Notes: generated by a model not told the origin, from the letters alone. DNA of 47,393 nt from Candidatus Woesearchaeota archaeon CG10_big_fil_rev_8_21_14_0_10_33_12 (GCA_002762865.1 PCYE01000003.1:1-47393); one strand, 5' to 3'. Shown: positions 48 to 47,393, numbered from the stretch's first letter. Numbers and translations: made by a program.

Positions 48-292
48 TAAATTTTTAGATTTTCAACGGTGCCAATAAACAAGCGAAACATTTAAATAAT
101 TCTGTTCAAAATGCCTGTAACATGAAAGAAATAAAGTTAATAGGAAATATGAATGAGTTCTTTTTAGATATATTCCTGTTAACAACACGTTAGTTCTAGT
201 GCATTTTTATAACAAAGCTTAAATACTATTTTGTTGTTTTATGGTTTTATTAAAAAATATTAAATAAAATAATGATTATGGAGGATATTCAA

Positions 293-4861: not shown

Positions 4862-5293
4862 TCAAACAAGATTGTTTATTATTGCTGAAATCACAAAGCC
4901 TAATGCTAAGCCGAAAATCAGGCCAATTAAAAACCTATCTGTGAAAAAGTTTGTTTTATCTTTTACAACAAGGCCACTTTTTAGCTTTTCAAGCTGCTCA
5001 ATCCTCTGGCTAACTGTTTCAAATGCTTTTTTCCTGGTTTTGGCTTTCAGCAAGTCATTGCTTAGTTCAACATCTTCAATAATATCTTTAACCCAGTTGC
5101 TGAAATCATTTTTTTCTTTTGTCACATGATGCTTAAAAGCATCATTACCCATTATTTCCAATGCTTCAGCAAGCTCCTGCAGGTTCTTTATTGATGTTCC
5201 CATATGAATATTAAATTCATGTTTTGGAACAACATCATTTAAGATTAAGTTTGCATCTTCTGGCAATAAATTATTTTTTGCTATTTTAATCAC
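4862..5293 (-). CDS. Uncharacterised protein, paralog A of the F..G..KN..L...M...F.HHV...NDF.W domain, with a C-terminal TM anchor
   Basis: The motif block is HEFNIHMGTSIKNLQELAEALEIMGNDAFKHHVTKEKNDFSNWVKDI. The C-terminal hydrophobic helix is FLIGLIFGLALGFVISAIINNLV. The start is GTG, 6 nt after the stop of paralog B. Confidence 0.65.
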   Translation of the reverse strand: MIKIAKNNLLPEDANLILNDVVPKHEFNIHMGTSIKNLQELAEALEIMGNDAFKHHVTKEKNDFSNWVKDIIEDVELSNDLLKAKTRKKAFETVSQRIEQLEKLKSGLVVKDKTNFFTDRFLIGLIFGLALGFVISAIINNLV

Positions 5294-5299
5294 CTTTTT

Positions 5300-5611
5300 T
5301 TAGTTGAATTTTTTTATTATATGCTTTAATATAATTATCTGTGTTTTATCTTTCTCAGTTGTTTTCAAAAGTTCTTCTGCAAGCTTTTCCTCTTTAAATA
5401 TCTCTTTTATCCAGCTCGCAAAATCATTTTTCATATCGTTGACATGATATCTGAATACTTCGTCAGACATTTTATCAAGCTGTTTAGACAAATCCAATAC
5501 ATTCTTTAAAACAGTTCCATCATTAACAAAAAAATAATGGTCTGAATTTGCGTCCTTCAATATATCCTTCTTTTCTATTTTTTTCTCTTTAACTCTTTTT
5601 TGTGTTTTCAT
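5300..5611 (-). CDS. Uncharacterised protein, paralog B of the same domain (soluble, 103 aa)
   Basis: The motif block is HYFFVNDGTVLKNVLDLSKQLDKMSDEVFRYHVNDMKNDFASWIKEI. Its ATG overlaps the GH57 TGA stop as ATGA (5608-5611). Confidence 0.7.
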   Translation of the reverse strand: MKTQKRVKEKKIEKKDILKDANSDHYFFVNDGTVLKNVLDLSKQLDKMSDEVFRYHVNDMKNDFASWIKEIFKEEKLAEELLKTTEKDKTQIIILKHIIKKFN

Positions 5612-6825
5612 ACTAACACCTCTTTTTTTAATATATTTTTTTCTGAATGCTCTTTTAACCTGAAATTCATATCATTTAATATATTCATAAAAGTTATGAA
5701 TGCATCATAGGGATTATCATAAGGATTGAAGTATTTATGCACATCGCCATCATTGAACCATTTTGTACACATGTAATAAAAATGGTCGCTTGTCTGAAGC
5801 TTTCTCCAATCATTAATGAGTTTTTTATCCTTTGATTTTTTTATGGCATCTTCAATCTGGTATATCTCATTTATTGCTGACTTCTGCATGTCATTTCCAT
5901 CCCATGCGCTTGTATCCCTTTCAACATCTGCCCATGAAACAGGGCTGTGAATGTCTAATTCTGCAACCGGATTATATGCTTTTATTGCCTCACTAGGTGT
6001 CTTAAAATCATTGTCAGGATGCTTTAATAACTCCTGAGGCAAATGCCTTAAAAAATTAAATATTCCTGTATCTTCCCACTGGTGCTCTCCAAAGGTTTCA
6101 TAATCCATAAATAAATTAACTACATTCCCATTTCCATTAACAGCATTAACCCAATTAGTGTATTTATCAACTGTAAGTGGCCATTCCTTCCAGCCCTTAT
6201 CTGAAAACCTGAATGCAATATCGTCAGAAAGCTTGTAATTTTTAAGCAAAAGCTTAATTCTTGATGTTGTTTTTGGAGTATAAATAAAATTAGGTGATCT
6301 CCAGCCAAGTATATGGTCTGCTCCCTCTGCAAGTATTCCCTTATAACCCATTGATTCAACAAAATTTGCAAGCTCATTATTATAAACAAGCTCTGTGTTC
6401 CTAAAAACAGATGGATTCTGCTTAAACAAGCTTCTTATTTTTTTATTATGCAAAATAACCTGCTCCTTAAATTCCTGTTTTGAATGCAGGAATGCAAGCG
6501 AATGATAATATGTTTCATCAAGTATTTCAACCTTCCCTGTATCAACCAAATCCTTAAATGATTGCAAAACTTCTGGCATAAATTCCTCAAATTGCTCTAG
6601 GATAACACCTGAAAAAGAATAGCTTATCTTAAATTCTTCATGCTTGTTAAGCAGATCAAGCATTAGCTTGTTGGTTGGAAGATAACATTTTTCTGCAACT
6701 TTTTGTAGTATATCTAAATTCTTCTGCTTATTAGTGTAACTATGATTCTTTCCAATCTCAAAAACATTATAATTCCTAAGCCTGTAGGGCTGATGAACCT
6801 GAAAATAAAAACAAATTGATACCAT
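5608..6825 (-). CDS. Glycoside hydrolase family 57 (alpha-amylase/alpha-glucan-active enzyme)
   Basis: The N-terminus ICFYFQVHQPYRLRNY is typical of GH57 (HQP motif). Other family-like blocks are TELVYNNE, DYETFGEHQW and WADVERD. Confidence 0.8.
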   Translation of the reverse strand: MVSICFYFQVHQPYRLRNYNVFEIGKNHSYTNKQKNLDILQKVAEKCYLPTNKLMLDLLNKHEEFKISYSFSGVILEQFEEFMPEVLQSFKDLVDTGKVEILDETYYHSLAFLHSKQEFKEQVILHNKKIRSLFKQNPSVFRNTELVYNNELANFVESMGYKGILAEGADHILGWRSPNFIYTPKTTSRIKLLLKNYKLSDDIAFRFSDKGWKEWPLTVDKYTNWVNAVNGNGNVVNLFMDYETFGEHQWEDTGIFNFLRHLPQELLKHPDNDFKTPSEAIKAYNPVAELDIHSPVSWADVERDTSAWDGNDMQKSAINEIYQIEDAIKKSKDKKLINDWRKLQTSDHFYYMCTKWFNDGDVHKYFNPYDNPYDAFITFMNILNDMNFRLKEHSEKNILKKEVLV

Positions 6826-6834
6826 TTTTAATCT

Positions 6835-7584
6835 TTAATGTGTAAGCCACCCTCCGTCAACAAATAATGTAATGCCAGTTATATAATCTGAATTATCTGA
6901 GGCAAGGAATAGGGCTGCATTTGCTATGTCTTCTGGCTTTCCAATTCTGCTTAATGGAATATTGGCAAGCAGTGTTTCCTTTGTTGCTTTATCTTCTAAT
7001 AAGTCTTTTGTCATATCTGTTTCTATCACGCCTGGGCCGATTGCATTAACATTTATTTTATATTGCGCTAGCTCTAGAGCAAGCTCTCTTGTTATGTTTA
7101 TTATTGCTCCTTTTGAAGCACAGTAAGCACTAGAGTTTGCAAATCCTACCTGGCCTGCAATAGATGCTATATTAATTATCTTGCCTTTGCCCTGTTTTAT
7201 CATCTCTGGAACAACAGCTTTTGAACAGAGAAAAACTCCCTTAAGGTTTATGTCTAAAGTCCTGTCAAAATCCTGCTCTGTAACATCAGTTAATGATTTT
7301 TGCATATATATTCCTGCATTATTAACAAGTATATCAACTTTGCCAAATTTTTCTGTTGTTAAGTTTATCATTTGGCTAACATCTTCAGGATTGGAAACAT
7401 CTGTCTTAACAGCCAAAGCATTTCCATTAATAGCCTTAATCTCTTCAACTAGTTTATTGCAATCATCTAGGTTTATGTCACTAACAACAATATTTGCTCC
7501 TGCTTTTGCCAAAGCAAGTGCTATTGCCTTTCCAATCCCTCTTCTTGAACCTGTTACAATCGCTACTTTATTTTTTAGATTCAT
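6835..7584 (-). CDS. Short-chain dehydrogenase/reductase (FabG-like)
   Basis: TGSRRGIGKAIA is the TGxxxGxG cofactor motif. NNAG is present, and YCASKGA is the YxxxK catalytic motif. Confidence 0.85.
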   Translation of the reverse strand: MNLKNKVAIVTGSRRGIGKAIALALAKAGANIVVSDINLDDCNKLVEEIKAINGNALAVKTDVSNPEDVSQMINLTTEKFGKVDILVNNAGIYMQKSLTDVTEQDFDRTLDINLKGVFLCSKAVVPEMIKQGKGKIINIASIAGQVGFANSSAYCASKGAIINITRELALELAQYKINVNAIGPGVIETDMTKDLLEDKATKETLLANIPLSRIGKPEDIANAALFLASDNSDYITGITLFVDGGWLTH

Positions 7585-7597
7585 TCTAATACCCCCT

Positions 7598-8818
7598 TTA
7601 TGAACTGCTTAATACTTTTTTATAAACGTCAATGCATTTTTTGGCACTGTCATTCCAGCTGATTTTTTTTATTTCTATCAGACCATGCTCCTTTAAGCAA
7701 TGATGCAATGCATTATATTTAAGTACTGCTATTATCTTGCTGGCCATCTCATCAATATCCCAAAAATCAACCTTAAGGCAGTTTTTTATAACTTCTGAAA
7801 CACCTGACTGCTTTGAGATGATAACCGGGGTTCCGTTTCTCATTGCTTCTAATGGCGTTATTCCAAATGGCTCTGAAACAGAGGGCATAACATACAAGTC
7901 TGCCATTTTATATGCCCTGTTAATATCATCGCCACGCAAAAAGCCGGTAAATAAGACATGCTGTGCAATCCCTAACCTTGCTGCTCTTTCTATCATATCT
8001 ACTTCCATATCACCAGAGCCTGCAATAATAAACTTAATATTTTTTTCATTTTCAAGCACTTTTTTAGCAGCATCAAGGAAATAATCAGGGCCTTTTTGCA
8101 GTGTTATTCTTCCAAGGAATAAAACTATTTTATCCTGGCTTTTTATCTTAAACTCTTCAGTATCAGGGAAGCTTTTAAATTCAACAGCATTGTGAACTAC
8201 AAAAACTTTTTCAGAGCTTATTCCATAATGCTCTACTATTTTATTTTTTGTAAAGTTAGATACTGCTATAATCAAATCTGCAGCATGCATTCCCATTCTT
8301 TCAATATCATAAACAGCCTGGTTTGGATGGTCTCCTGTGCGGTCAAATTCAGTTGCATGAACATGCATAACCAATGGTTTTTTTGAGACTTTTTTTGCCT
8401 CAATTCCTGCCAAATAAGTCATCCAGTCATGGCAATGTATTAAATCAAAAGTCTCATTTTCAGCTATTTCCCTTGCTTTTCTGGCATATCTGTGAACTTC
8501 TTCAAATAAGTTTTGGCCATAAACCCTATTAAAATTCTTGTCTGAATTCATACATCTTTTCTTATGCATAGTTTCATATCCCTCTGATGATATATAAGGG
8601 ACCAATAATGAATCTACAGTTTTGATGTTAACAAAACTTGTAGAAAATGCAATTATCATATCAACAAAATCTGATTTAATTGGCTTTGGTGCTGTTGGGA
8701 TTACAAATGTTATATTAATGCCCTGTTTGCTTAGGCCTTTTGTAAGGCCATAGCATGCTGTTCCCAATCCACCTGTATTAAAAGGAGGAAATTCCCAGCC
8801 AAACATCAAAACTTTCAT
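7598..8818 (-). CDS. GT-B glycosyltransferase of GT4/GT5 type (archaeal/bacterial glycogen-synthase-like)
   Basis: The N-terminus MKVLMFGWEFPPFNTGGLGTACYGLTKGL resembles the starch/glycogen-synthase K-x-GGL region. EPFGITPLEAM is the E-x7-E motif. Confidence 0.65.
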   Translation of the reverse strand: MKVLMFGWEFPPFNTGGLGTACYGLTKGLSKQGINITFVIPTAPKPIKSDFVDMIIAFSTSFVNIKTVDSLLVPYISSEGYETMHKKRCMNSDKNFNRVYGQNLFEEVHRYARKAREIAENETFDLIHCHDWMTYLAGIEAKKVSKKPLVMHVHATEFDRTGDHPNQAVYDIERMGMHAADLIIAVSNFTKNKIVEHYGISSEKVFVVHNAVEFKSFPDTEEFKIKSQDKIVLFLGRITLQKGPDYFLDAAKKVLENEKNIKFIIAGSGDMEVDMIERAARLGIAQHVLFTGFLRGDDINRAYKMADLYVMPSVSEPFGITPLEAMRNGTPVIISKQSGVSEVIKNCLKVDFWDIDEMASKIIAVLKYNALHHCLKEHGLIEIKKISWNDSAKKCIDVYKKVLSSS

Positions 8819-8995: not shown

Positions 8996-9589
8996 AAGGG
9001 GTGGTTTAGTATTAATACAGTTGAAATTGACCAGCAAGAGTATCTTATAATAAAAGAGCTTGTAAAAGATCCAAGAATTTCTGACAACCAGATAAGCAAA
9101 AAAACAAAAGTTCCTGTAAAAACAGTAAACAGGAAAAGAAAGCTTCTTGAGAAAAGCGGAATAATAAGTTATCATACAAACGTTGATAACACTCTTACAG
9201 GAACAGGAAAATTTGGCGCAAAGCAACAATATATAATAACCTTCAAGTATGGTATTACAAGAAGCATAATATTTGAGATTCTGAAGAGTAATATTCCTTC
9301 CAAGATAGAGATGAAACATATTTCTGAATGTTCAATCGGAGATAAGGATGGCCATGCAATTGTCACAATGACAATAGAGTCAAGGGTTGAATCTGACATA
9401 ATTGAGGTCTTTAATGCTGAGATTCTGCCAAAATTAAAAAGATTGCTTGGAGAGGATGCTGTGATAAAAACAGATGTGCTTACATTCAATTCACATTTCA
9501 TAAAGATGCATAATTACATGCCGTTTATTAACATGAGAAACGGAAAGATAAAAGAAGAATGGTCTGATGACCTGGTGTTTATTGATTAA
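8996..9589 (+). CDS. Lrp/AsnC-like HTH transcriptional regulator; open frame without a canonical start (possible pseudogene or non-canonical initiation)
   Basis: The frame translates as ..IDQQEYLIIKELVKDPRISDNQISKKTKVPVKTVNRKRKLLEKSGIISYH.., an AsnC-type HTH, and continues into the tracked 9311-9589 ORF. There is no in-frame ATG, GTG or TTG between the TAA at 8993 and the ATG at 9311. Confidence 0.55.
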   Translation, partial: KGWFSINTVEIDQQEYLIIKELVKDPRISDNQISKKTKVPVKTVNRKRKLLEKSGIISYHTNVDNTLTGTGKFGAKQQYIITFKYGITRSIIFEILKSNIPSKIEMKHISECSIGDKDGHAIVTMTIESRVESDIIEVFNAEILPKLKRLLGEDAVIKTDVLTFNSHFIKMHNYMPFINMRNGKIKEEWSDDLVFID

Positions 9590-9590
9590 A

Positions 9591-11378
9591 ATGGAAAAAG
9601 AAGCAGATTATTTGTTTGAGATTTCATGGGAAATATGTAACAAAGTTGGGGGTATTTATACTGTTGTTAAATCAAAGGCTGCTGAAATAATGGAATATTA
9701 TAAGGAAAATTATTTTGCAATAGGCCCTTTTTTTCCAGAAAAAGTGGCTGGGGAATTCCAGGAAAAAGTTCCTCCAGATAAACTAGCCAAAGCATTTGAA
9801 AAACTACAAAAACAAGGCATAAAGTGCCATTATGGAGGTTGGCTTATTAAGGGTGAACCTAACACAATTCTGGTTGATTTCAGTGGATTTACATCTAAAA
9901 AAGATGAAATAAAAACAAGCTTGTGGCAGAATTTTAAGATAGATTCACTTAACACACAATACTTTGATTTTGATGAGCCTGTTATCTGGTCATATGCTGT
10001 TGGGAAGCTTTTAGAGGAAATAAAAAATGTTTTCAATGATAAAAAAATTGTTGCGCAGTTTCATGAATGGCTAGCAGGAGCAGGCCTGCTTTACCTAAAG
10101 CAGAATAATGTCAAGGTTGCAACTGTTTTTACAACACATGCAACAATTCTTGGCAGGACAATGTCCTTTGCAAATGAAGAACTTTATGAAATATTTGACA
10201 AGATAAATCCAGAGAAAAAGGCATATGAATATGGTATACAGGCAAAATACCTTACAGAAAAGCAAAGTGCATTAAATGCAGATGTTTTTACAACTGTAAG
10301 TGAGATTACAGCCATAGAAGCAGAGCATCTCTTGGGAAAAAAGCCAGATGTTCTTTTGCCAAATGGCCTTGACCTTAAAAAGTTCCCGACATTTGAGGAG
10401 GCATCTATAAAACATCGTTTATACAGGGAAAGAATAAAGGAATTTCTGATGTATTATTTTTTTCCATATTATTCATTTGACCTTGATAATACTCTTCTTT
10501 ATTTCTTATGCGGAAGATATGAATTCAGGGCAAAGGGCATTGATATATTTATTAAGGCATTAGCAAAATTAAATGAAAAACTTAAAAAAGAGGAATCTAA
10601 CAAAACCATTGTGGCTTTTTTCTGGGTTCCTGGCAATATTAGGGCAATAAAAACAGGATTACTTGAAAATAAAACCTTTTTTGAAGACATAACAGATGCT
10701 ATTGATGATGATATAGGTGAAATTAAAAACAGGATAATTTATTCAATAGTTTCAAAAAAGAGCATTACAGAAAAAAACATTTTTGATGAAGACTTTCTGC
10801 ATGAAAACAAAAAAAAGGTTTTAAAGCTAATGAAAAAAGGGGATCCAGAGCTAACAACACATGATTTACAGGATGAAAAAAATGATTCTATTATCAAGTC
10901 CCTTAATGAAGCTGGCTTATTAAACAAAAAAGAAGACAGGGTAAAGGTTGTTTTTTATCCAATCTATCTAACTGGAGCTGATCAGCTGCTTGACCTGGGC
11001 TATTATGAATGCATGCAGGGCTCACATCTTGGTGTTTTTCCATCATACTATGAGCCATGGGGTTACACACCATTGGAAGCAGCTGCACTTGGTGTTTCAT
11101 CTGTAACAAGTGACTTGGCTGGATTTGGCAGGTATGTTAATGAAAAATCTGTGCAAACTAAAAATCCAGGAATATTTGTTTTGAAAAGATTAGGCAAAAA
11201 AGATGATGAGGTTGTTAATGAGCTTACTAATGCATTTTATTATTTCAGCAATTTATCAAAGCAGGAAAGAATAAAAAACAAGATGGAAGCACAAAGGTTA
11301 GCTTCATTGGCTGACTGGGAGGTTTTAATTAAAAATTATATTCAGGCACATAATCTTGCTATAAAGAGGCTTGGTTAA
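9591..11378 (+). CDS. Glycogen synthase, eukaryote-type (GT3 family-like)
   Basis: FEISWEICNKVGGIYTVVKSKA matches the hallmark N-terminal block of GT3 glycogen synthases. FHEWLAG, TTHATILGR, GVFPSYYEPWGYTPLE and the length (~596 aa) also fit. I prefer the ATG at 9591 over 9567, which overlaps the upstream gene. Confidence 0.75.
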   Translation: MEKEADYLFEISWEICNKVGGIYTVVKSKAAEIMEYYKENYFAIGPFFPEKVAGEFQEKVPPDKLAKAFEKLQKQGIKCHYGGWLIKGEPNTILVDFSGFTSKKDEIKTSLWQNFKIDSLNTQYFDFDEPVIWSYAVGKLLEEIKNVFNDKKIVAQFHEWLAGAGLLYLKQNNVKVATVFTTHATILGRTMSFANEELYEIFDKINPEKKAYEYGIQAKYLTEKQSALNADVFTTVSEITAIEAEHLLGKKPDVLLPNGLDLKKFPTFEEASIKHRLYRERIKEFLMYYFFPYYSFDLDNTLLYFLCGRYEFRAKGIDIFIKALAKLNEKLKKEESNKTIVAFFWVPGNIRAIKTGLLENKTFFEDITDAIDDDIGEIKNRIIYSIVSKKSITEKNIFDEDFLHENKKKVLKLMKKGDPELTTHDLQDEKNDSIIKSLNEAGLLNKKEDRVKVVFYPIYLTGADQLLDLGYYECMQGSHLGVFPSYYEPWGYTPLEAAALGVSSVTSDLAGFGRYVNEKSVQTKNPGIFVLKRLGKKDDEVVNELTNAFYYFSNLSKQERIKNKMEAQRLASLADWEVLIKNYIQAHNLAIKRLG

Positions 11379-12321
11379 AATAGAACTTAGGAAAGATTAT
11401 ATTTTGAACAGATGGGTGATTATAGCTTCTGAAAGAAAGAAAAGGCCAAAAGAATTTAAAAAAATCAAGGCAAATAAAGAGGGAATTTGCTATTTCTGCC
11501 CTGGCAATGAAAATCTCACCCCAACTGAAACTGGAAGGATTGAAAAAGATAGCAAGTGGATTATAAGGTGGTTTCCAAACAAGTTCCCTGCTGTAAGCCA
11601 TGAGGGAAACCCATCAATAAGAAGCACAAATAAGTATTTTACATATGCTGATGCATTTGGAATCCATGAAGTAATAGTTGAAACACCTGACCATGATAAG
11701 CAGCTTGCTGACTTATCAGAAGAGCGCATAAAAGAGGTTTTGAAGGTCTATGCTAACAGGATAACTGAATTAAGCAAAACAGACGGCACAAAATATGTAA
11801 TTGTCTTCAAGAATGAAGGGATGGAAGCAGGAACATCACTGGTTCATTCGCACACACAGGTTATGACTTATAACAAAGTTCCTGTTCTTGTTGAGGAAGA
11901 AGTTAATGCAGCCAGGGCTTATGGAACATGCCCTTATTGTGAGATAATCAATATTGAAAAAAACAGTTACAGAAGAGTCTTTGAAAATAATAATTTTGTA
12001 AGCTTTACGCCATATGCCTCAAGATTTAATTATGAAATCTGGATATTTCCAAAAGAGCATATAAAAAACATAACTGAAATGGATGAAGTTAAATTAGATG
12101 ATTTGGCTTCAATACTTAAAAAGATTTTGATGAAACTAAAAGAAATGAATCTTCCATATAATTTTTTCCTTCACTATGCTCCTGATGGGAAAGACTTACA
12201 TTTTCATATTGAAATATGCCCAAGGCTTGCTACATGGGCTGGCTTTGAGCTTGCAACAAATGCAACAATAAATTCTGTAAGCCCGGAAGATGCTGCAAAA
12301 TTTTACAGGGGAGAGGAATAG
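11371..12321 (+). CDS. galT: Galactose-1-phosphate uridylyltransferase-type HIT nucleotidyltransferase (GalT / ADP-glucose phosphorylase-like)
   Basis: CYFCPGNE is the Zn-site CxxC. HSHTQV is the HxHxQ active site. The second half-domain contains FENNNFVSFTPYASRFNYEIWIFP. The TTG start overlaps the GT3 gene by 8 nt. Confidence 0.8.
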   Translation: MVKIELRKDYILNRWVIIASERKKRPKEFKKIKANKEGICYFCPGNENLTPTETGRIEKDSKWIIRWFPNKFPAVSHEGNPSIRSTNKYFTYADAFGIHEVIVETPDHDKQLADLSEERIKEVLKVYANRITELSKTDGTKYVIVFKNEGMEAGTSLVHSHTQVMTYNKVPVLVEEEVNAARAYGTCPYCEIINIEKNSYRRVFENNNFVSFTPYASRFNYEIWIFPKEHIKNITEMDEVKLDDLASILKKILMKLKEMNLPYNFFLHYAPDGKDLHFHIEICPRLATWAGFELATNATINSVSPEDAAKFYRGEE

Positions 12322-12366
12322 AAAAAGATAAAAAAATATTTGAATTTAGTTTTTCTGCTCAATAAA

Positions 12367-14175
12367 ATGGTAAAGATAGTTCATTTATTAAATAATCACA
12401 AGATAGAAAGCAAATCAACTAAAGATACTAGGCTTCTGATTACAAACAGGAAAGGAGGATATTTCTGTCTTGCTAATATGGGTAAAAGTAGGTATGATGG
12501 GCTTTTCTTTTTTGATGAAAAAGTGTATAAGGTTATTGAAAGCCTGAATATAGTTGGTTCTGCTAAGGCAGGCAAGATAATCAATAAGTTTTATGAAATC
12601 AAAAGGGAATGGGACAATACAGCTGAAACATTTTTCATGCCCAACAATTATGATTCATTGGTTTATGAGACAACCCAGCCAAGCAATATTGAAATAGTCC
12701 TTGATGCAAAAGAAAGCTATGACCATAGGCAGTGGGGCAGATTTTATACTATTTGTCAGGAAGATGATAAAATAATAGTTAAGTTTGTTAAAAAAACAGA
12801 TTCAAGGGAAGACAGTTCTGATGGCAGTGAAGAATACTCTTTATTTTTGGTGCTTAAGTTTGAGGGCATGTTCAAGAAAGCTGAAGAATGGGAAAAAAGA
12901 AATTATGAATTTGACAAAAAAAGGAATTCAATGCCTTATGAAAGATATGTTTTTTCAGCGCTAAATTTAAAGACAGAAAGGGTTGTTTTAAGCTTCTCAA
13001 AAAACAAGGAAAGGGCAAAAAAAGAAGCAGACTATGTTTTTAGGAATATTGAAAATTTAAGAGAAAAGCAAAAAGAATATTATGATAGCCTGTTAAAATC
13101 AAGAAAAAATATTAAAAATGAGGTTATGATGGCATATTCTTGCACAATAAACTCGCTTGATTCATTAACTGTTGATAATAAAGGTATTTTTGCCGGTCTG
13201 CCATGGTTTTTCCAGTTCTGGACAAGAGATGAGGCCATTTCATTAAAGGCTTTGATGTTACAGGGAAATTTTAGTTTAGCAAAAAATATCTTATTTAGGC
13301 ACCTGAAATCTGTTTTGCATGATGGAAAGCTTCCAACAAAGCTAGACTCTTTATTAAGGAGCGCTGATTCTGCTGGCTGGGTTTCAAAAAGAGCAGAAGA
13401 TTTGATTTATATCTTAAAAAATAAAAAAATTCTTGAGAAGCAATTTACAAGAAATGAAATTGAAGAAATAGAAGAAAGAATTGGTCATTCTCTTGACTTT
13501 ATGATAAAATATCACACGCGGGATAATCTCGTCCTTAATAATGCAAAAGAAACATGGATGGACAGCCTGCAAAGGGATGGCTTTAGGATAGAGATTCAAG
13601 CAATGCAGTTAAGCATGTATAAGCTAATGCATGAGCTTACAAATAACAGAATTTATCGAGAACTTGAAGATAATTTAAAAAAAGAGGTTAGAGATAAGTT
13701 TTGGAACAAAAAATGTCTTGCAGATGGGTTAGATGATTTTACTATAAGGCCAAATGTGTTTATTGCATATTACATGTATCCTGAACTTTTGACAAATAAA
13801 GAATGGATTACATGCTTTGACAATGCATTAAAAAGTTTATGGAATGATTGGGGCGGAGTTTCAACAATAGACAAAAACAATCCCTTGTTTAGGCCAGAGC
13901 ATACAGGAGAAATTAATGAAAGTTACCATAATGGTGATTCATGGTTCTGGATAAACAACCTTGCTGCAATTACTTTGTATAGATTGGATAAAAAAAGATA
14001 CAAAAAATACATTGATAAAATATTACAAGCAAGCACAAAAGAGATTTTATGGCAAGGGGCAATAGGCCATCATGCTGAGCTATCAAGCTCTAAAGAGCTA
14101 AGGTCAGAGGGTTGCCTGGCCCAGGCATGGTCTGCTGCAATGTATATTGAACTAATCAACGAGATTTACAAATAG
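12367..14175 (+). CDS. Glycogen debranching enzyme, amylo-alpha-1,6-glucosidase (GDE C-terminal domain type)
   Basis: GLPWFFQFWTRDEAISL is the GDE_C WF..W.RD block. The (alpha/alpha)6-barrel C-terminal half contains HNGDSWFWINN and EGCLAQAWSAA. TTG at 12340 is the alternative start. Confidence 0.75.
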   Translation: MVKIVHLLNNHKIESKSTKDTRLLITNRKGGYFCLANMGKSRYDGLFFFDEKVYKVIESLNIVGSAKAGKIINKFYEIKREWDNTAETFFMPNNYDSLVYETTQPSNIEIVLDAKESYDHRQWGRFYTICQEDDKIIVKFVKKTDSREDSSDGSEEYSLFLVLKFEGMFKKAEEWEKRNYEFDKKRNSMPYERYVFSALNLKTERVVLSFSKNKERAKKEADYVFRNIENLREKQKEYYDSLLKSRKNIKNEVMMAYSCTINSLDSLTVDNKGIFAGLPWFFQFWTRDEAISLKALMLQGNFSLAKNILFRHLKSVLHDGKLPTKLDSLLRSADSAGWVSKRAEDLIYILKNKKILEKQFTRNEIEEIEERIGHSLDFMIKYHTRDNLVLNNAKETWMDSLQRDGFRIEIQAMQLSMYKLMHELTNNRIYRELEDNLKKEVRDKFWNKKCLADGLDDFTIRPNVFIAYYMYPELLTNKEWITCFDNALKSLWNDWGGVSTIDKNNPLFRPEHTGEINESYHNGDSWFWINNLAAITLYRLDKKRYKKYIDKILQASTKEILWQGAIGHHAELSSSKELRSEGCLAQAWSAAMYIELINEIYK

Positions 14176-47079: not shown

Positions 47080-47393
47080 ATGCCTATAGTTAAACAACAT
47101 CTTAAAGACTTAGAATTGCCAGACCTTCCTGATTTTAAAGTTAAAGAAAAAATTCCTGTTTCTAAATCAATTGAAAAAAATGAGTTAGATAAAAGTGTTG
47201 AGAAACCAAAATCAATAAAAAAACTCCCTAAAGAAAAAGTGCAAGAAAAAAAATTGAAAAGTAAACCAATGGAGAAAAAGATAAAACCAGAGCACCATTT
47301 TATCTTAAAGGGAGGCCATAGGATTAAAAACATGAAGGAACTTAAAGAGTCAATTAAGTTTATGGATAAATCCACATTTGATCATCATGTAAA
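47080..47393 (+). CDS. Partial CDS running off the window: paralog C of the F..G..KN..L...M...F.HHV domain, with a Lys/Glu-rich N-terminal extension
   Basis: The hand translation is MPIVKQHLKDLELPDLPDFKVKEK...KPEHHFILKGGHRIKNMKELKESIKFMDKSTFDHHV.., open to the window end. It aligns with paralogs A and B. The opposite-strand tracked ORF 47076-47375 is low-complexity shadow. Confidence 0.6.
   Translation, partial: MPIVKQHLKDLELPDLPDFKVKEKIPVSKSIEKNELDKSVEKPKSIKKLPKEKVQEKKLKSKPMEKKIKPEHHFILKGGHRIKNMKELKESIKFMDKSTFDHHV

Follow-up and report, generated by a model that had tools for sequence, protein, structure and literature searches.

We analysed a stretch of DNA (hereafter the window) that makes up nt 1-47393 of a contig of 55.8 kb; the genome has a size of 1.05 Mb and a GC content of 33%. 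ORF calling in the window yielded two adjacent genes, A and B, and a third gene, C, which is cut by the window end; the proteins encoded by all three carry the same module. A and B close one arm of a gene cluster that consists of two divergent arms, i.e., GT4/5-SDR-GH57-B-A and HTH_24-GT3-GalT-like-GDE. The features are as follows:

4862-5293, minus strand: gene A, a tail-anchored single-module protein of 143 aa, counted from a GTG start (ORF; PF19027 20.0 bits; 46 homologues), with the module at residues ~20-95 (nt 5009-5236)
4865-4933, minus strand: C-terminal transmembrane (TM) helix of A, FLIGLIFGLALGFVISAIINNLV, ending at the last residue (hydropathy)
5300-5611, minus strand: gene B, a soluble single-module protein of 103 aa (ORF; PF19027 25.1 bits; 41 homologues), in which a Lys-rich N-tail (residues 1-18) precedes the module (residues ~19-95, nt 5327-5557) and a helix closes the C-terminus
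5608-6825, minus strand: predicted GH57 glucan enzyme, 405 aa (Pfam Glyco_hydro_57, E 2.3e-78)
6835-7584, minus strand: short-chain dehydrogenase (SDR), between the GT and GH57 genes (Pfam adh_short_C2, E 2.9e-75)
7598-8818, minus strand: GT4/GT5-type glycosyltransferase (GlgA-like), the first gene of the operon (Pfam Glycos_transf_1, Glyco_transf_4 and Glyco_transf_5)
9011-9589, plus strand: HTH_24-like regulator, which diverges from the GT operon and overlaps the start of GT3 (tblastn)
9567-14175, plus strand: the divergent glycogen genes, whole arm
9567-11378, plus strand: GT3 eukaryote-type glycogen synthase (Pfam Glycogen_syn, E 1e-164)
11371-12321, plus strand: GalT-like uridylyltransferase (GalP_UDP_transf, E 4e-23)
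12340-14175, plus strand: GDE_C amylo-1,6-glucosidase (GDE_C, E 5e-38)
47080-47393, plus strand: 5' part of gene C, encoding a K/E-rich N-extension and the module (ORF; block HMM)

A and B are the last cistrons of the GT-SDR-GH57 operon, and the ATG of B overlaps the TGA of the GH57 gene in an ATGA at 5608-5611, with a GAGGTG box located 7 nt 5' of this ATG, within the GH57 gene. Both the operon position and the overlap had been proposed in an earlier note on this DNA, as had a C-terminal TM anchor in A, a soluble B and a K/E-rich N-extension in C. All of these hold, with the extension of C lying 5' of the module. As regards the anchor, the hydropathy profile of A contains one segment only (window 116-134, score 1.81), within a 23-residue hydrophobic stretch that runs from residue 121 to the C-terminus at residue 143. 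A is therefore built as a tail-anchored protein, with a single C-terminal TM segment preceded by an N-terminal domain. The same layout was found in all 61 TM-bearing relatives, each of which has exactly one TM segment and no more than 20 residues beyond it.

B and A share a reading frame in the window and are separated by one TAA and two codons. A single gene broken by a stop codon, or one subject to programmed read-through, was considered and rejected. Full-length B orthologues are 102-111 aa long (41 homologues) and, in a relative with 76% identity, a gap of 16 nt puts B and A out of frame, so that B and A are to be regarded as two genes; they are separate genes in all relatives. Furthermore, of 76 adjacent pairs of module genes, just 10 share a frame and are separated by a single stop, whereas one-third would be expected by chance. 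Identical copies of B occur on 30 contigs and of A on 23 contigs, which rules out an assembly artefact; the recurrence of B also speaks against a broken gene. The 46 homologues of A are mostly 139-143 aa in length and keep the C-terminal hydrophobic stretch.

The best NCBIfam match of the GT4/GT5 gene is glgA_Coryne, at a score below the cut-off, and this gene lies directly 5' of GH57 in most related loci. By tblastn, an SDR gene occurs at this position only in the closest relatives (loci L135-L137), whereas in farther relatives GT4/5 is followed directly by GH57. The regulator of the divergent arm was delineated by comparison with the HTH_24 protein of a related locus (L004), which aligned to the window at 9023-9586 with 62% identity over 188 aa (tblastn). 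The cluster encodes two unlike enzymes of glycogen-synthase type on divergent strands, i.e., the GlgA-like GT4/GT5 protein (7598-8818) and the GT3 Glycogen_syn protein (9567-11378). The labels of the orthologues and of neighbouring records are Nanoarchaeota or Woesearchaeota. The locus was found in many groundwater and aquifer metagenomes, and a search for transcript evidence returned it from groundwater and aquifer DNA runs only.

By BLASTP, A and B aligned without gaps over 74 aa (36% identity, E 8e-17), and the module that they share extends over ~77 aa. The C fragment was matched by B with an E of 2e-4 and was found at 26 bits (E 4e-6) by an HMM built from A and B. The claim of the earlier note that three proteins share one block was thus correct as to the sharing and too low as to the number, given that the same HMM identified six module copies in the genome, i.e., A, B, C and three more. 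The first of these is a standalone 112-aa protein (C30:23430-23768) whose gene adjoins an L11 gene. The second forms the C-terminus of the kleisin ScpA, encoded outside the window (C7:1221-2240; Pfam SMC_ScpA 3e-16 and DUF5752 3e-8). The third, a weak match of 18 bits, lies at the C-terminus of a membrane HerA/DUF87 ATPase, also encoded outside the window (C47:8745-11090). In the contig, C runs to 48561 and encodes a protein of 493 aa that is mostly coiled coil. An internal duplication of ~110 aa was observed within this coiled coil (C34:47080-48561; FKAMKKELEEFKEKQKTIKKNEEIL... versus FECIKTELNQFKEKQKDIEKNKEIL...), and the sequence of C has an 11-residue X run, due to N bases, inside the module.

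The Pfam family PF19027 (DUF5752; gathering cut-off 23 bits, model length 208) matched B above the cut-off (25.1 bits) and A below it (20.0 bits), while C had no Pfam match. B aligned to model positions 51-88 and A to positions 128-199; the 208-position model therefore holds the block twice. When B and A were read as one frame, the score against PF19027 rose to 37.2 bits. The earlier note had suggested a Pfam DUF with a glucan or trehalose link, and PF19027 is that family. Judging by these profile matches, the module is the repeat unit of DUF5752.

The structure predicted for B by AF2 (pLDDT 87.5) consists of a beta-hairpin followed by five helices. A Foldseek search with this model retrieved OrfY of Thermoproteus tenax (4CSO, chain D) with a probability of 0.96 over 77 columns, an rmsd of 2.0 A and a TM-score of 0.53 normalised to the query, so that the B model has the fold of an OrfY repeat. 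No other PDB match to the B model had a probability above 0.13. In addition, the sequence profile of B orthologues matched both OrfY repeats at NDFxxW. We assign A and B to the OrfY/DUF5752 superfamily, as members with a single repeat.

This superfamily is large. The module profile has matches in 4832 clusters (50% identity) at E<=1e-3; at E<=1e-10 the number is 3459. Proteins matched at E<=1e-3 are 89-1970 aa long, with 1-3 modules each. Among 148 modules from different genomes (87 soluble first-position and 61 tail-anchored), the F/G/L/H-V/N-D-F/W positions were 82-100% conserved, with the exception of His, which was conserved at 74% in the tail-anchored class. The block is thus a real domain, as the earlier note had supposed, rather than a low-complexity coincidence. 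The conserved positions are common to the two classes, and no class-specific residues were found within the 148 modules when soluble and tail-anchored forms were compared. On helix 3, F64, W67, I68, I71 and F72 line up as an i/i+3/i+4/i+7/i+8 stripe; in the AF2 model of B, N62-D63 caps the N-terminus of this helix and G32 occupies the hairpin turn. In view of this stripe, N-cap and hairpin glycine, and going by sequence periodicity, the invariant positions would be explicable as determinants of the fold.

We examined the linkage of the module to glucan genes in three sets of loci. In a phylum sample of 201 genomes, Pfam DUF5752 was present in 104 and GH57 in 117. GH57 was found in 96 of the 104 DUF5752-positive genomes, and the module in 8 of the 84 genomes negative for GH57. 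When only Pfam matches were counted, the module lay 0.3-2.3 kb downstream of the GH57 match, and on its strand, in 62 of the 77 genomes that had the two. In the second set, made up of 100 fetched GH57 loci and that of the window, a clade-specific HMM search showed that GH57 is directly followed by one to four same-strand module genes in 94 of the 101 loci, with median gaps of ~15 nt. The first module gene overlaps or abuts the GH57 stop in 33 of these 94 loci, and no fusion of GH57 to a module was seen among the 101. One module gene was present in 32 loci, two in 49, three in 12 and four in 1, i.e., at least two in 62 of the 94. The locus with four (L035, G117:C7:43939-48696) has them consecutively after GH57, in the order soluble, TM, soluble, TM, and this run looks like a duplicated B-A pair.

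The third set, a species-wide scan of 80 loci, was mostly from Woesearchaeota and Nanoarchaeota, with some records labelled Aenigmatarchaeota, Paceibacterota, other Patescibacteria or Dehalococcoidales; not all of these MAG labels can be relied upon. GH57 lies directly upstream of the module in 35 of the 80 loci, usually with GT4/5 before it, and in a further 12 loci the flank holds other glycogen genes, among them cases in which modules are directly upstream of GT3 synthases. The GT4/5-GH57-module order was observed in Woesearchaeota, in Aenigmatarchaeota and in records labelled Paceibacterota or other Patescibacteria (CPR). Finally, one related genome (G155) encodes a canonical two-repeat DUF5752 protein (214 bits) whose gene overlaps that of a TreT trehalose synthase (TreT_GT1) by 14 nt, and the same genome also has two module genes after GH57. 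Taken together, the 94 of 101 GH57 loci, the 35 and 12 of the 80 loci in the species-wide scan and the OrfY-treT overlap bear out the preferential linkage of homologues to glucan genes that had been predicted from this one locus.

The genes that follow GH57 are of two types and are typically found in a fixed order, in which the gene for a soluble protein whose N-tail is rich in lysine (B type) comes before that for a tail-anchored protein (A type). The first-position protein lacks a TM segment in 87 of 94 loci and has a pre-domain tail with a median net charge of +6; this N-tail is strongly basic in 59 of the 94. The second-position protein has one C-terminal TM segment, located after the module, in 43 of 62 loci, and the last module gene encodes a TM segment in 60 of 94. 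In a maximum-likelihood tree of modules (173 leaves, 148 of them in the two classes; 80 alignment columns), in which most deep nodes are unresolved, 9 label changes are needed to account for the two classes, versus ~50-58 when the labels are shuffled; the B-A pair is therefore old. On this phylogenetic evidence, the B type and the A type are two ancient paralogue classes.

The modules also tend to occur in twos or more, given that OrfY has two per chain, many relatives have 2-3 per protein and 62 of the 94 loci have at least two module genes. We asked whether B and A might represent a collinear split of OrfY, with B corresponding to repeat 1 and A to repeat 2. When class HMMs were run against both repeats of canonical OrfY and of tandem-module proteins, they scored the two repeats about equally, which does not support such a split. 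AF2 was also applied to the in-frame B-TAA-A read-through, using seven rows that are naturally paired in frame. It returned confident domains with a pTM of 0.45 and did not reproduce the domain arrangement of OrfY (TM-score 0.23-0.27, rmsd >20 A); these models therefore provide no computed B-A interface.

OrfY of T. tenax and DUF5752 are the closest known counterparts of A and B. The likeness extends to the fold of the module (probability 0.96, rmsd 2.0 A, 77 columns), the NDFxxW motif, the score of B above the Pfam cut-off and the position beside an enzyme of alpha-glucoside or alpha-glucan metabolism, with orfY overlapping treT in the related Woesearchaeal genome. However, OrfY is one soluble chain (215-216 aa in 4CSO) with two modules, and DUF5752 proteins have two tandem modules in a chain of ~200-230 aa, whereas A, B and C have one module each. 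Moreover, B has a Lys-rich tail, A has a C-terminal TM anchor, and the neighbour in the window is GH57 rather than TreT, so that the orfY-treT pairing does not occur there. The relation is a distant one, with the class HMMs scoring 21-26 bits on the canonical OrfY repeats. In our reading, the A-B pair is a variant architecture of the catalogued and structurally solved DUF5752/OrfY family, with single modules, one TM anchor and a GH57 neighbour. A literature search on DUF5752, OrfY and 4CSO found nothing in the library covered, the trehalose literature that was checked made no mention of orfY, and no experimental data on the function of any family member were found.

On the basis of these findings, we tentatively propose, with a probability of roughly 0.4, that A and B are a non-catalytic accessory pair for alpha-glucan enzymes that is paired through its modules, is partly membrane-anchored and holds or regulates GT4/5 and GH57. 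At the broader level of a non-catalytic partner for glucan metabolism, as had been suggested for the two genes initially, the idea is supported by the linkage to GH57 in 94 of 101 loci; a regulator, a glycogen-granule tether and a membrane tether, which the earlier note had put forward more specifically, are candidate roles. A and B would act as accessories of the alpha-glucan (glycogen) enzymes that are encoded upstream of them. The core partner would be B, a soluble protein that carries a lysine-rich N-tail and whose translation is coupled to that of GH57. A, tail-anchored in the membrane, would pair with B module to module, in the manner of the two modules within one OrfY chain or of those in many proteins with tandem modules. 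By binding to GH57 or the GT, A and B together would recruit the GT4/5-GH57 machinery to the cytoplasmic face of the membrane and hold or regulate it there. We infer the module-pairing accessory role because the coupled gene order is conserved, the genes fall into two classes and the modules are habitually found in twos. Since 32 of the 94 loci have one module gene, the membrane-anchored partner would be either dispensable or supplied from elsewhere. Also counting against the proposal are the read-through models, which gave no B-A interface, the failure to find GH57-module fusions in the 101 loci or class-specific residues in the modules, the equal scores of the two classes on the OrfY repeats, and the half of the family that lies outside glucan contexts. 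Because nearly all related genomes show this arrangement, A and B are nonetheless likely to represent a helper of sugar-storage enzymes that has not been described before.

A precedent for a co-transcribed partner that activates a sugar enzyme by complex formation exists in T. tenax, in which TPSP is activated by a GT in the trehalose synthase complex (PMC3634074). The TPSP operon of that organism also encodes a membrane protein, a mechanosensitive channel (PMC3634074). The activator in this case is a GT4 glycosyltransferase, however, and not an OrfY-type module, and a sequence or fold relationship to A or B is not expected.

The module is not specific to glucan genes. Approximately half of the copies in the family lie outside glucan contexts, e.g., fused to ScpA, to HerA-type and KaiC-type ATPases or to envelope proteins. 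Among 68 long family members, the fusion partners include DUF87/HerA (8), KaiC-type ATPases (5), CarboxypepD_reg envelope proteins (5) and ScpA (1). Under the accessory-pair proposal, the module on ScpA, the HerA/KaiC-type ATPases and the envelope proteins would be a docking unit of a like kind. This distribution also counts in favour of a second explanation, which we consider possible and somewhat less probable, namely that the module is a small-ligand sensor that binds a sugar, nucleotide-sugar or signalling nucleotide and signals to the protein to which it is fused or adjacent, the candidate recipients being GH57, GT3, TreT, ScpA and the HerA/KaiC ATPases. Its occurrence as a promiscuous terminal add-on in many unrelated architectures is a pattern typical of regulatory input domains, the polar-aromatic H-V-x4-N-D-F-x2-W motif is near-invariant in all contexts, and several enzymes of one pathway (GH57, GT3 and TreT), rather than one, are associated with it. 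However, the invariant positions can be explained by the helix-3 stripe, the N-cap and the hairpin glycine, and Foldseek detected no similarity to known ligand-binding folds.

Membrane or granule tethers that serve glucan metabolism are known in eukaryotes. Stbd1 combines a TM anchor with a CBM20, and plant PTST a coiled coil with a CBM48; the CBMs of both are beta-sandwiches with proven affinity for glucan. The logic of these architectures resembles that of A and B, in that a small non-catalytic protein joins a membrane anchor or coiled coil to a targeting module, by which glucan or its enzymes are positioned. By analogy, the module might itself bind alpha-glucan, with A tethering glycogen particles to the membrane and B coating or targeting them. 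The glycogen-cluster context in 94 of 101 loci and the tail anchor of A would fit such a role, as would the conserved Trp, Phe, His, Asn and Asp, which are residue types of sugar-binding sites. The module of A and B is mostly helical, however, and has no CBM similarity: no CBM family matched A, B or C in Pfam at E<=0.1, and none matched the B model in the PDB. Furthermore, glucan binding would make no sense of the fusions to ScpA, HerA, KaiC and envelope proteins, and TreT, the partner of canonical OrfY, makes a disaccharide and not a polymer. We therefore regard direct glucan binding as improbable.

Least probable is a DNA-binding transcription factor for the glycogen/trehalose operon, with the lysine-rich tail of B aiding DNA binding; the depositors of 4CSO named the molecule 'transcription factor', 59 of the 94 first-position proteins have the strongly basic N-tail and one copy is fused to the kleisin ScpA, but no HTH, wHTH or RHH match was obtained in Pfam, no HTH structure was among the single-module Foldseek matches (best non-OrfY probability <=0.13; TetR-family matches to the fused B-A model at E>=1.8 and probability <=0.04), many members have a tail anchor or form part of the cytoplasmic tail of a membrane protein, the cluster already has an HTH_24 regulator of its own, and A and B are last cistrons that are translationally coupled to an enzyme.

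A broader and rather speculative extension would make the OrfY-type module a docking or signal-input domain of general use in small-genome archaea and bacteria (DPANN and CPR). It would link sugar storage (GH57, GT3 and TreT), chromosome organisation (ScpA), HerA-/KaiC-type ring ATPases and the cytoplasmic tails of giant envelope proteins in one membrane-associated network, or place them under one shared intracellular cue, e.g., a nucleotide messenger. If so, the module would organise the cell or serve signalling in a manner for which no counterpart has been described. The C47 protein that bears the weak module copy has 781 aa, with an extracellular N-domain, one TM segment, the HerA/DUF87 P-loop ATPase and the OrfY-type module; its gene adjoins a wHTH gene and genes for large secreted proteins.

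Returning to the accessory-pair reading, glycogen clusters of DPANN and CPR carry a near-constant module gene or pair, from a family, DUF5752, that goes unmentioned in the literature library searched. If the pair positions or regulates glucan enzymes, carbon storage would prove to have had a component missing in organisms that account for a large part of the microbial diversity of groundwater. Such a role would also give OrfY/DUF5752, for which a crystal structure has been solved, its first functional handle, and this handle is testable because a canonical DUF5752 member exists in the genetically tractable Sulfolobus acidocaldarius.

Near-cognate codons after well-placed Shine-Dalgarno boxes were observed at two genes of the cluster (window 8998-9013 and 5282-5299). 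The HTH_24 regulator gene appears to have an ATT start, with GGGGTGG-N6-ATT in the window versus GTG in a relative. Gene A has GGTGAT-taaa-ATA at the spot at which relatives have GGTGAT-N4-ATG, and its listed GTG start falls inside the Shine-Dalgarno-like GGTGAT box; the start call for A is accordingly uncertain, and the protein would be 140 aa long if the start were the ATA at 5284. These near-cognate starts may reflect AUU/AUA initiation in this lineage or shifted starts.
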